Origin: an uncultured Chloroflexia bacterium
Lineage (GTDB): Bacteria > Chloroflexota > Limnocylindria > Limnocylindrales > CSP1-4
Assembly: GCA_963707215.1 (NCBI GenBank)
Contig: CAVPPB010000002.1
Location: 26,865-90,864 of the forward strand
Reading direction: 5' to 3'
DNA: 64,000 nucleotides
The notes beneath the pieces were generated by a model. That model searched no databases, had not been told where the DNA came from, and was given only the letters and a program-made list of their open reading frames with translations. Positions 27,491 through 35,627 of the stretch are shown piece after piece. The first letter of the stretch is position 1. Every line of letters starts with the position of its first letter. The position numbers were made by a program, and so were the translations under genes.

Positions 27491-28774
27491 GTGCGCGCAG
27501 GGACAGCCCGGTCTCGAATTCGGCCAGCGATCCTGATCCGACTCGCCTGGATCAACGTCGCCGTGCTCCTGGTGGCGGCGTTCCTGCCGCTCGGTGGCCC
27601 AAGCCTCGCCGCCTCGGTCGAGCCGGTCACCTCGGTCCAGGACGGGAGGCTCGCCGGGAACCCCAAGTGCGCCTCGATCGATGACTGGTACGGGAACGGC
27701 CAGACGTGGACCGACGCCAAGATCGACGCCGAGCCTCGCGACGGCAGCTATGGATTCGGCAACGGCCGGATCATCACGATCTCGAACTGGGATCCAGGGA
27801 CCCGGACCTTCGACTGGACGTCGACGTTCGGGATCGACGCGGTCTTCATCAAGGCCGGCCAGGGGAACGGCGGCTTCAACACCCTGTACGTCTACGCCCC
27901 GACGAGCGGGTCGCTCGAGTCATTCGGCGACACGGAGCTGACGTCCCTCGGCCCACGTGGTGTCAGCCACGTCGACTTCTGCTGGGACCAGGACGTGCCG
28001 CACCCCAGCCCGTCTCCCAGCGCCAGCATCGGACCGTCGGCCAGCCCGAGCCACAAGCCCTGCCCGAGCCCGAGCATGGCACCGAGCCCATCCCCGAGCC
28101 ACGAGCCCTGCCCGAGCGTCGCCCCGAGCCCGAGCGTTCCGCCGAGCCCGAGCCCGTCGGCGAGCATCCAGCCGTCGGCGAGCCCGAGCGTCGCCCCGAG
28201 CCCGAGCCCGAGCCCGAGCCCGAGCCCGTCGCCCAGCCCGAGCGTGCCGCCGAGCCCGAGCCCGAGCCCGAGCCCGAGCCCGTCGGCGAGCAACCAGCCG
28301 TCGGCGAGCCCGAGCGTCGCCCCGAGCCCGAGCCCGAGCCCGAGCCCGTCGCCCAGCCCGAGCGTGCCGCCGAGCCCGAGCCCGTCGCCCAGCCCGAGCC
28401 CGTCGGCGAGCAACCAGCCGTCGGCGAGCCCGAGCGTCGCCCCGAGCCCGAGCCCGTCGGCGAGCCCGAGCGTCGCCCCGAGCCCGAGCGTCGCCCCGAG
28501 CCCGAGCCCGTCGGCGAGCATCCAGCCGTCGGCGAGCCCGAGCGTTCCGCCGAGCCCGACCGCGAGCGTGGCCCCCAGTCCCTCTCCGAGCCCCACCGGG
28601 GAGGTCGGCGGGATCACCTTCCCGCCGAGTGCTACGCCTCCGGCGACCGACATCCCCTCCGGCCCGGCGTCGCCGACCGAGTGGGCGTGGCGCCTCGCGC
28701 TGCTCCTGCTGGTGGCCGTGCAGGCCGTCGCCCTGAAGATCGTCCCGCGCCTGCTGGGCCTGGCTGCCGGCTGA
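27491..28774 (+). CDS. secreted protein: signal peptide, conserved about 130-aa N-domain, (PS)n linker and C-terminal TPPATD-TM anchor (paralog A)
   Basis: GTG start. The N-domain [32 protein letters not shown]...[19 protein letters not shown]...VSHVDFCWD is about 60% identical to the 34749-35627 protein. It has roughly 200 aa of PSPS repeats and ends ...[37 protein letters not shown]. Confidence 0.7.
28000..28600 (+). repeat. coding low-complexity tandem repeats (CCCGAGCCCGAGCCCGTCG-type) encoding the (PS)n / [13 protein letters not shown] linker
   Basis: Visible higher-order repeats of about 120 nt. They lie within the CDS 27491-28774. Confidence 0.8.
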
Positions 28775-29044
28775 ATCCGTCGCCTGCGAGTCGGCGACCC
28801 CCGATCAGGACGGACGTACCAGGACCGTCGGTGCCCTTGCGCACCGGAATCCCCGCCGAGCAAGGGACAGGGTAGGGGAGGTAGGGGCGGTTCCCTACTG
28901 GTCCGGTGCGGACCTGAGCAGTACCATCCGCGGTCCGCTCGGCCTAGCATCGGTCCTGCGGTACCAGTCCCGGGCATGACCCGGGTCGTGGTCGTCGGTC
29001 TCGGGGGCCGGCCATGTGATCCGTCCCCCCTGAAGGAATCGTCG

Positions 29045-29060
29045 GCGTCGTATGACGCTC
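29045..29060 (+). promoter_or_regulatory. imperfect palindrome GGCGTCGTATGACGCT about 70 bp upstream of the DUF11 gene start; related to the site at 34677-34692
   Basis: It shares the 12-mer TCGTCGGCGTCG and the GACGC half-site with the site upstream of the paralog-B gene. Confidence 0.3.
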
Positions 29061-29122
29061 GCACATCGTGAGGTCGGTCGAAATCGACAGACCCGGTCTC
29101 GGGGACTCGGGAGGGCAGATCG

Positions 29123-34367: not shown

Positions 34368-34676
34368 GGTGAACCCAGGGGTCCCCGAGACCCGGACGGG
34401 GCGCGCCGCCCCCGCGGCGTGCCCCGTCCTGAGTCCGAGCGCACGAGCGCTGTTCCGAGTGCTCGAGACCGGGGTGCGGGTCGTCCGCACCCCGGTCCTC
34501 GTACGTCCCGCGGATACGGAAAGGCGGTTCGGTCTGGTTCGCACTGGTCCAGGGGCGTCCCGAGAGGTAGCATGCTGGTCCGCGGCCATCGTCGCCGGCC
34601 GCGGGACCGGGCCGAGCGCGTTCGATCCGGCCACCGGTCTCGGGGTCGATGCCCATCGTCTCCGAGGGGACTCGTC

Positions 34677-34692
34677 GGCGTCGCACGACGCC
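34677..34692 (+). promoter_or_regulatory. perfect palindrome GGCGTCG-CA-CGACGCC about 65 bp upstream of the paralog-B start
   Basis: Counterpart of the 29045-29060 site at a similar spacing from the start codon. Confidence 0.35.
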
Positions 34693-34748
34693 GCGACTGG
34701 CCGGGCCTGCCGTGGATCGGCTGGCTTCGGATCCGGAGGGACCGTCGC

Positions 34749-35627
34749 ATGACACGGGGCACCGTGGACAGGCGGCCCAGCCGAGGGCCTTTCCTCGGCC
34801 GCGTCGCGCTGCTCCTCGTTTCGATCGGTCTGCTGAGCCTGTCGCTGGTCGGTCCGGCAGAAGCGCTGGCCGCATCGGTCGAGCCGGTGACCTCGCTCCA
34901 GGACGACCGGCTTGCCGGGAACCCGACCTGCGCCGAGATCGCCGCGTGGTACGGCGGCGGGCAGAGCTGGTCCGGCGCGAAGATCGACCGGGAGCCCGCG
35001 CCCGGCACCTACGAGTTCGGAGCCGGCAGGTCGATCACGATCAGCGGCTGGGATCCGACGACCGGCACGCTCGACTGGACCTCGACGTTCGGGGTCGACG
35101 CAGTGCTCTTCAAGGCCGGCCAGGGCAACGGCGGATTCAACACCCTGTACGTCTACGCGCCGACCGCGGCTTCCGTCGAATCGCTCGGCGACACCGGCCT
35201 CAGGTCACTGTCGCCGACCGGCGTCAGCCACGTCGACTTCTGCTGGGATACGGGAGCGCCGAGCCCGAGCCCATCGCCCGAGGCCAGCCTCCAGCCGAGC
35301 GCCTCCCCCGGAGCGAGCCCGAGCCCATCGCCCGAGGCCAGCCTCCAGCCGAGCGCCTCCCCCGGAGCGAGCCCGAGCCCATCGCCCGAGGCCAGCAGCG
35401 GACCCGTCGGATCACCCGAGGCGCCAGCTTCGCCGAGCCCGAGCCCGACCGGCGGGGTCCTGCCGGCGGTCGTGTCGCCTGCCGTCACGCCGCCGCCCAC
35501 GGACGACGTGATCATCATCGGCACGCCGGATCGGTCGCCCGCCTGGCTTGCCGCCCTTGCCGTCGGGCTGGCCTCCCTCGCCGCCCTTGCGGTCGCGATT
35601 CGCCGACGTTCCCGTCAGACCGGATGA
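34749..35627 (+). CDS. secreted protein: signal peptide, conserved N-domain, PS-rich linker and C-terminal TPPPTD-TM-basic anchor (paralog B)
   Basis: [74 protein letters not shown]...VSHVDFCWD is homologous to the 27491 gene. It ends ...VTPPPTDDVIIIGTPDRSPAWLAALAVGLASLAALAVAIRRRSRQTG. The linker is encoded by 3 x 57-bp repeats (about 35254-35420). Confidence 0.7.
   Translation: MTRGTVDRRPSRGPFLGRVALLLVSIGLLSLSLVGPAEALAASVEPVTSLQDDRLAGNPTCAEIAAWYGGGQSWSGAKIDREPAPGTYEFGAGRSITISGWDPTTGTLDWTSTFGVDAVLFKAGQGNGGFNTLYVYAPTAASVESLGDTGLRSLSPTGVSHVDFCWDTGAPSPSPSPEASLQPSASPGASPSPSPEASLQPSASPGASPSPSPEASSGPVGSPEAPASPSPSPTGGVLPAVVSPAVTPPPTDDVIIIGTPDRSPAWLAALAVGLASLAALAVAIRRRSRQTG

Follow-up and report, generated by a model that had tools for sequence, protein, structure and literature searches.

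T[LP]PxTD-CTERM, a conserved C-terminal module on surface proteins of Limnocylindrales (Chloroflexota) and a possible variant of sortase-type sorting signals

We have analyzed a 64-kb stretch of contig CAVPPB010000002.1 (assembly GCA_963707215.1) from an uncultured Chloroflexia bacterium of the Limnocylindrales; the whole of these 64,000 nucleotides is called the window below. Three genes of the window, A, B and C, code for putative surface proteins ending in a common tail, for which we use the name T[LP]PxTD-CTERM. Sequence comparisons support the view that the tail is a strongly conserved C-terminal module whose three-part build follows the logic of sorting signals. With confidence that is about evenly divided, we propose that such tails are a variant, specific to the Limnocylindrales (Chloroflexota), of the sortase-type cell-wall sorting signal and would be cleaved after the threonine of the motif. 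The three genes and their tails are as follows.

27491..28774, + strand: gene A, an open reading frame (ORF) whose translation has a signal peptide, a ~130-aa beta-sandwich N-domain, a long Pro/Ser linker and a divergent C-terminal tail
28601..28771, + strand: gene A tail, with TPPATD at 28634-28651, WR at 28688-28693 and a hydrophobic run at ~28694-28744
29052 (or 29124)..34322, + strand: gene B, a giant DUF11/CLIPPER-repeat protein with a signal peptide and the C-terminal tail
34125..34319, + strand: gene B tail, with TPPPTD at 34158-34175 and a helix at ~34215-34274, then TPVPARIRNTREDGR
34749..35627, + strand: gene C, with a signal peptide, the N-domain, a Pro/Ser linker and the C-terminal tail
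35454..35624, + strand: gene C tail, with TPPPTD at 35487-35504, a helix at ~35544-35600 and RRRSRQTG at 35601-35624

The initial annotation had described three frames with a tripartite ending, and their positions, strand and translations held, with TPP.TD present at all three ends. The N-terminal signal peptides that it had assigned to the three proteins were also found: read by eye, each has at its start an Arg-rich n-region and then a hydrophobic h-region. The basic end that it had given to all three was clear for B (ARIRNTREDGR) and C (RRRSRQTG); the end of A is only weakly basic, behind a short hydrophobic run, and the term positive tail is generous for this protein. In the six-frame translation of the 64 kb, TPP.TD occurred exactly three times, at 28634, 34158 and 35487, each time 46-54 residues ahead of the stop codon of gene A, B or C, and the spacer between TPP[PA]TD and the hydrophobic helix was 12-14 residues in the three proteins. 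Shuffled windows contained on average 0.12-0.15 such motifs, and none of 400 shuffles reached three.

The tail is not restricted to these linked genes. A profile built from 27 tails was used for an exhaustive search of 1.84 billion cluster representatives (50% identity level) and recovered 870 representatives at E<=1e-3, of which 308 were at E<=1e-10; in nearly all of the best 150 of the 870 hits, the match reached the last residues of the protein. A word-indexed search (E<1e-5) added 70 clusters, for the most part from truncated gene calls; where a source was named, it was Candidatus Limnocylindrales or Chloroflexota, except for one partial protein labelled Patescibacteria group. The tail proteins with a named source are currently annotated as hypothetical. 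Scanning genomes with the N-domain gave 80 loci, the best hits being Candidatus Limnocylindrales and metagenome-assembled genomes (MAGs) labelled uncultured Chloroflexia. Six-frame translation of these loci revealed ~40 more ORFs with the tail module, all within ~20 loci with a Chloroflexota lineage in the record title (Limnocylindrales, Chloroflexia, Chloroflexota/Chloroflexi). Canonical LPXTG proteins were not seen in ~0.5 Mb of tail loci, where the motif was present on almost every ORF that ends in a helix plus basic tail.

Alignment of the family showed a conserved module of ~65 residues. The motif TPP[PA]TD, as originally proposed, describes A, B and C; the family-wide motif is T-[L/P]-P-x-T-D. 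The consensus starts with P-[TS]-G-x-V-x-G-A-T-G-T-P-x-[VI], followed by T-[L/P]-P-[P/A/S]-T-[D], then T-L, ~8 small residues, [DS][GS]-W-R, ~19-24 hydrophobic residues, T-P and an Arg/Lys-rich end. Of the 145 top representatives, 142 had the pattern x-x-P-x-T-[DNSAGE] at a distance of 38-62 residues from the end, the motif starting 42-53 residues from the C-terminus (mode 47). Among these 142 tails, the residue ahead of the motif was T in 139; motif position 1 (P4) was L in 79 and P in 56; P2 was P, A or S; and the last motif residue (P1') was D in 114 (80%), S in 14, G in 6, A in 5 and N in 3. The spacer from motif to hydrophobic core was mostly 12-14 residues across the family. The helix is bounded on its outer side by W-R (117/142) and on its inner side by T-P (115 of the 141 scored), and the C-terminal seven residues contain on average 4.3 Lys/Arg. 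Gene B belongs to a subtype on DUF11 giants, ..NPGF.LML...GFVTPVP.R.R, which has no W-R; the same GF..LML...GFVTPVP ending was present on the DUF11 giants of six other loci (L003, L004, L007, L009, L017, L082).

T[LP]PxTD-CTERM is absent from the curated libraries searched. Comparison of the window and consensus tails with NCBIfam release 20 and Pfam at E<=10 reached no sorting-signal model. The consensus tails gave no hit to TIGR01167, the tail scored 10.7 bits against the PGF-CTERM model (cutoff 18.8), and neither window nor consensus tails hit PEP-CTERM or GlyGly-CTERM. Control LPRTG and LPFTG tails taken from Actinomycetota homologues passed TIGR01167 with 18.4 and 20.0 bits, which makes this negative result meaningful. 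In the full-text literature, LPPTD or TPPPTD was not found as a protein motif, nor was a paper linking Limnocylindria and sortases. The statement of the initial annotation that the motif matches no named signal was thus borne out. The string LPxTD left a single trace in the literature, as an item in a list of regular expressions for anchor motifs (PMC9210967).

The module is carried by many different passengers. These comprise the N-domain, DUF11/DUF7507, SpaA/SpaA_2/SpaA_4 prealbumin-like domains, DUF5979/DUF7601, Big_3_5, a Trypsin_2 protease and several unassigned domains; DUF11, SpaA, SpaA_2, DUF5979, DUF7507, Big_3_5 and Trypsin_2 are classic sortase cargo. Protein B matched PF01345 (DUF11) with 478 bits in 10 stretches and TIGR01451 with 268 bits, the repeats being in tandem; it also matched DUF7507 and the RrgB-like isopeptide domain RrgB_K2N_iso_D2. 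Proteins A and C matched no Pfam or NCBIfam family. Their N-domains are 58% identical over ~130 residues, in line with the earlier description of two small paralogs sharing this domain and a Pro/Ser linker, and the domain is a new beta-sandwich head. The orthologues of gene A (P0002, P0003 and L001) retain its tail. Two homologues that join the N-domain to a region of DUF11 type (P0005, P0006) had the ending of protein C, as did P0007 and P0011, the latter with an unrelated N-terminus.

Comparison with homologous proteins places the module where sortase-type motifs stand elsewhere. The N-domain homologues of Actinomycetota and of the Candidate Phyla Radiation (CPR) end in LPRTGS, LPKTGS, LPFTGG, LPNTG or LTRTGA followed by a helix and RR. 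In other Chloroflexota, the homologues carry LPATGG, LPVSGG or APNTGTG with spacers of 10-12 residues, showing that a long spacer is not anomalous in this phylum. Furthermore, two loci, L018 (Candidatus Limnocylindria) and L030, contain the same syntenic island as the window. The two island proteins of L018 end in ..ATGTPAASQPNTAMG.. (also given as ..TGTPAASQPNTAMG..) and ..STPAPSVPNTAIV.., and the single island protein recovered from L030 ends in ..RLPNTAVAL..; in these endings, 12-18 residues separate the motif from a helix, after which comes a basic tail. In the small protein of L018, the motif stands in the same register to an upstream TGTP as in TGTPxVTLPPTD. The shared island and register suggest that T[LP]PxTD is an orthologous replacement of an LPNTA-like motif. 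This sister variant of the Limnocylindria/Chloroflexota can be written [LVQ]P[ND]TA, with a spacer of 12-18 residues, a helix ending in ..LA.ANV[RK] and then a basic tail; NCBIfam models did not recognize the long-spacer tails with [QV]PNTA either. The variant was located at the following positions of three loci.

L018, 7872-8693 and 9012-13976: [LVQ]P[ND]TA tails
L020, 8424-9635, 10215-10592 and 14084-14791: [LVQ]P[ND]TA tails
L030, 9584-11476: [LVQ]P[ND]TA tail

The initial annotation had put forward a possibly new sorting signal. The tail is indeed modular, absent from existing models and present on unrelated passengers; it is, however, probably not a new kind of signal, since an invariant xPxT followed by a variable residue is the sortase pattern. 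Like LPXTG, the class D motifs LPXTA-LPNTA and the (S/P)PXTG of Clostridioides difficile, it combines a short motif, a hydrophobic helix and an Arg/Lys tail. As in LPXTG-type signals, Pro is at P3 and Thr at P1, within ~50 residues of the end and in A, B and C alike, P1' is variable, and a hydrophobic segment with a positive tail follows (clear for B and C, weak for A). The cargo types are also the same (DUF11, SpaA, DUF5979, Ig-like stalks, proteases), and the tail takes the place of LPXTG on the Actinomycetota homologues and of [QV]PNTA in sister Limnocylindria. Departures from LPXTG are documented for sortase substrates: the SrtB enzyme of C. difficile cuts (S/P)PXTG (PMC4155245), class D sortases use LPXTA (PMC8225981), and LPKTS, in the streptococcal protein AbpA, is cut by SrtB between T and S, the final residue of the motif being the most variable (PMC4974636). 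AbpA thus resembles the present tails in a T|X cleavage with a P1' other than Gly, but it has no hydrophobic domain and its sortase gene adjoins the substrate gene, unlike the situation in the window.

Several observations weigh against a sortase-type signal. The P1' residue of A, B and C is in every case Asp and not Gly, Ala, Asn or Ser, and the literature searched contained no characterized sortase that takes Asp at P1'. Compared with LPXTG-type signals, the family differs by Asp at P1' in 80% of the tails, by the near-invariant preceding Thr, by the spacer of 12-14 residues and by the conservation of PTGxVxGATGTP, W-R and T-P. Classical sortase signals have no conserved parts of this sort, and these extra elements could reflect a membrane enzyme that recognizes the helix, or a helix that is retained. 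The best TIGR01167 score of the tails, 13.0 bits, lies under the cutoff of 15.9, and the match covers the helix only. Finally, neither the 64-kb window nor ~30 tail loci (~0.5 Mb) yielded a sortase, whether with a regular expression for the H...TLxTC...R signature or with a local hidden Markov model (HMM) made from five locus sortases and S. aureus SrtA. In the same survey, ~55 loci without the tail gave six sortase ORFs, located in five of them; all five are loci of Actinomycetota or CPR homologues, the sortase ORFs lie within 10 kb of an N-domain homologue, and that of L037 is a PF04203 protein grouping with class F sortases.

The window was inspected further for a processing enzyme. Its proteins with several transmembrane segments included no sortase in Pfam and NCBIfam scans, and no exosortase- or rhomboid-like protein was seen among them, in agreement with the original remark that the window encodes no sortase. 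Besides MFS transporters, ABC permeases and an EamA protein, they comprise three predicted membrane proteins without a Pfam or NCBIfam match, as listed here.

975-3050, - strand: membrane protein without family, 10 hydrophobic segments
42945-43400, - strand: membrane protein without family, 4 hydrophobic segments
53162-54262, + strand: membrane protein without family, 6 hydrophobic segments

A partner enzyme was also sought by neighborhood, using all-versus-all ORF clustering of 22 loci, Pfam scans of neighbors and the inspection of seven contigs; only synteny with housekeeping genes, a metallo-beta-lactamase-fold (MBL) protein and sigma/anti-sigma genes was found. A database-wide search with a sortase alignment was swamped by Actinomycetota, all its hits being class F sortases of that phylum.

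Three other explanations were weighed. The hexapeptide might have arisen by chance from low-complexity linkers rich in Pro and Thr, in a genome of 72% G+C, or from assembly error, and it is true that the linkers are repetitive and rich in Pro, Ser and Thr, that argS and the DUF8575 gene probably contain frameshifts and that gene B contains a perfect 729-nt duplication. Given the shuffled windows, the fixed position of the motif relative to the stop codon and the recovery of the same module in hundreds of independent metagenomic and MAG sequences, this explanation is extremely improbable; the shuffles, the tail-bearing loci and the profile search have already refuted it in practice. A more serious alternative, although one we consider on balance rather unlikely, is that the tail is not processed and acts as a permanent membrane anchor with a conserved juxtamembrane stalk, in which T[LP]PxTD and the surrounding Thr and Pro would serve for glycosylation or for contact with the wall or an S-layer. 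It would explain why no enzyme was found in the window or the tail loci, the conserved sequence and boundaries of the helix suggest a lasting role for it, and the basic tail of gene A is poor. Moreover, the tail genes of a genome lie in one island, or in one of two, and this clustering means that common descent of a 3' cassette could account for part of the similarity. What speaks for an enzyme site instead is that a six-residue block with two invariant residues is kept over 870 clusters beside a freely varying spacer, that homologous and orthologous proteins have LPXTG or LPNTA at exactly the place of the module, and that the motif may end in D, S, G, A or N, a variation like that at a sortase P1' site.

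The remaining explanation is a new sorting system, in which an enzyme other than a sortase, encoded elsewhere and for instance a polytopic membrane protease or transpeptidase, would read the W-R...T-P helix together with T[LP]PxTD. The helix, its boundaries and PTGxVxGATGTP are conserved beyond what is seen in classical LPXTG signals, no sortase was found near any tail gene, no curated model matches, the tail is restricted to one lineage, and the window encodes the three predicted membrane proteins without family. The systems for which such reading of a conserved helix by a membrane enzyme is known, PGF-CTERM with archaeosortase, PEP-CTERM with exosortase and GlyGly-CTERM with rhombosortase, were found by comparative genomics, and they resemble the present case as lineage-restricted C-terminal domains that follow Thr/Pro/Ser-rich linkers. 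In these signals, however, the motif directly abuts the helix, whereas it is 12-14 residues away here. In addition, the neighbors (housekeeping genes, the cytoplasmic-looking MBL protein, sigma and anti-sigma genes) include no candidate enzyme, and sortase ancestry is favored by the xPxT core as well as by the LPNTA-type orthologues. We regard a non-sortase enzyme as unlikely, and hold the same doubt for the wider proposal that T[LP]PxTD and [LVQ]P[ND]TA tails together mark a sorting system with an undescribed membrane enzyme reading the W-R...T-P helix.

If T[LP]PxTD-CTERM is a sortase-type signal, proteins of the A, B and C types would be exported via their N-terminal signal peptides and kept in the membrane by the C-terminal helix and Arg/Lys tail. 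A membrane-associated transpeptidase, which we infer to be a sortase, would then recognize T-[L/P]-P-x-T-D about 12-14 residues above the membrane, cleave after Thr and link the protein to the wall. The heads (beta-sandwich N-domain, DUF11, SpaA, DUF5979, protease) would be displayed on Pro/Ser/Thr-rich stalks. The genes are grouped in one hypervariable surface island between argS and a block of MBL, anti-sigma and ECF-sigma genes (ECF, extracytoplasmic function).

Such an island was seen on all seven informative contigs that were reached via the tail and not via the N-domain (L081-L084, L098, L129, L130), with the tail genes of each contig in one island. On the left side, hut/FTCD genes, an MBL gene (Lactamase_B_3), a DUF8575 gene and argS precede 1-4 tail genes; on the right side follow MBL (Lactamase_B_2), a DUF5667 anti-sigma gene, ECF sigma, PHP, aminotransferase, ADH, FAA hydrolase and DUF3105. 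The passengers differ between genomes, which points to a hypervariable surface-protein island. Contigs from a metagenome scan with the tail were mostly <5 kb, and the single long one carried the same island. A second syntenic context (L011, L021, L033, L051) contains a tail variant without W-R and T-P. The borders of the island in the window are the following.

25698..27720, - strand: argS, the conserved left border (tRNA-synt_1d/DALR_1 in syntenic loci)
35682..36431, - strand: MBL-fold protein, the right border (Pfam Lactamase_B_2), no signal peptide seen
36517..37323, - strand: anti-sigma-like protein (DUF5667 in orthologues)
37320..37916, - strand: ECF sigma factor (Pfam Sigma70_r2/ECF)

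The MBL gene directly follows the last tail gene in each of the seven contigs, and from its sequence the protein looks cytoplasmic. The pair of DUF5667 and ECF sigma genes was also present in L081, L082 and L130, and the block may regulate the genes of the island. An ECF-type promoter pattern, GGAAC-N15-18-CGT, had 8 matches compared with 9.5 expected, none of them 5' of genes A, B or C. The anti-sigma-like gene contains, at 36532-36676, a perfect 42-nt repeat in 3.3 copies encoding PGKPSQPPGKPSEP. On the left side, argS is present in two overlapping frames, 25698-26516 and an upstream part within 25816-27720, which suggests a frameshift or indel error in the assembly, and the gene models of the window should be used with care. 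Next to it, at 24195-25332 (+ strand), a gene of the LAAC-lipobox HExxH lipoprotein type appears to be split over at least two frames; it corresponds to DUF8575 of the syntenic loci and scored 106 bits, below the cutoff of 200, with NCBIfam NF038145 (Hvo_1808 family surface protein). This DUF8575/Hvo_1808-like protein was considered as the processing enzyme and rejected: it sits across argS and is linked to the tail genes by general synteny alone.

Other features of the window were recorded alongside. Within gene B, a perfect tandem duplication with a period of 729 nt extends over 30781-32238, the duplicated unit being two DUF11 repeats; 30781-31080 and 31510-31809 are 100% identical, as are 31288-31444 and 32017-32173. 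It reflects either very recent expansion or an error of the assembly. The leaders 5' of genes B (~350 nt) and C (~425 nt) have common blocks at 28850-29126 and 34470-34751, CTGGTCC..GAG..GTA.CAT..GGTCCGC and TCGTCGGCGTCG.A.GACGC, which may have a promoter or leader function for the island; an Rfam scan of 27000-36500, these leaders included, gave no match. A long ORF at 14814-18038 (+ strand) matched both a urocanase C-terminal domain and a Lamin Tail Domain and probably represents two genes fused by a crude ORF call or a frameshift. The gene at 56976-58850 (+ strand) codes for a Ser/Thr kinase of PknB type that has PASTA domains; this is consistent with a peptidoglycan-containing, monoderm-type envelope and counts in favor of the sortase-type reading.

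The N-domain has a set of invariant residues (in protein C, residues 57-167: G57-N58-P59-x-C61, K78, W110, D117-A-V, K122, E144, S160-H161, F164-C165, D167). With a conserved Cys pair and with Lys, Asp and Glu residues, the beta-sandwich may contain a disulfide or an intramolecular isopeptide bond. Homologues of Anaerolineae, Myxococcota, Vicinamibacterales and Dojkabacteria have no membrane anchor and end in ...LD.YNNG..GPGHC[SD]E, which is another uncharacterized C-terminal module; ends of the ...GPGHC[SD]E type were found in nine loci (L014, L029, L042, L044, L045, L066, L071, L074, L075) and on P0008 and P0009.

Limnocylindria are abundant in soils and lakes and are uncultured, and nothing was found on the display of their surface proteins in the literature searched. 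The tail labels what appears to be the main set of displayed surface proteins of this group, comprising adhesin-like stalks, a protease and a new beta-sandwich head. A curated HMM of the tail would let annotators recognize these proteins, would define a cargo set for envelope proteomics and would open a phylogenetic-profile route to the enzyme, be it a new one or a sortase with an unusual acceptance of Asp at P1'. For sortase-mediated ligation, too, a sortase able to use T|D with a long spacer might be of interest. If the enzyme were instead not a sortase, an abundant uncultured class of soil and freshwater Chloroflexota would have its own machinery for surface display.

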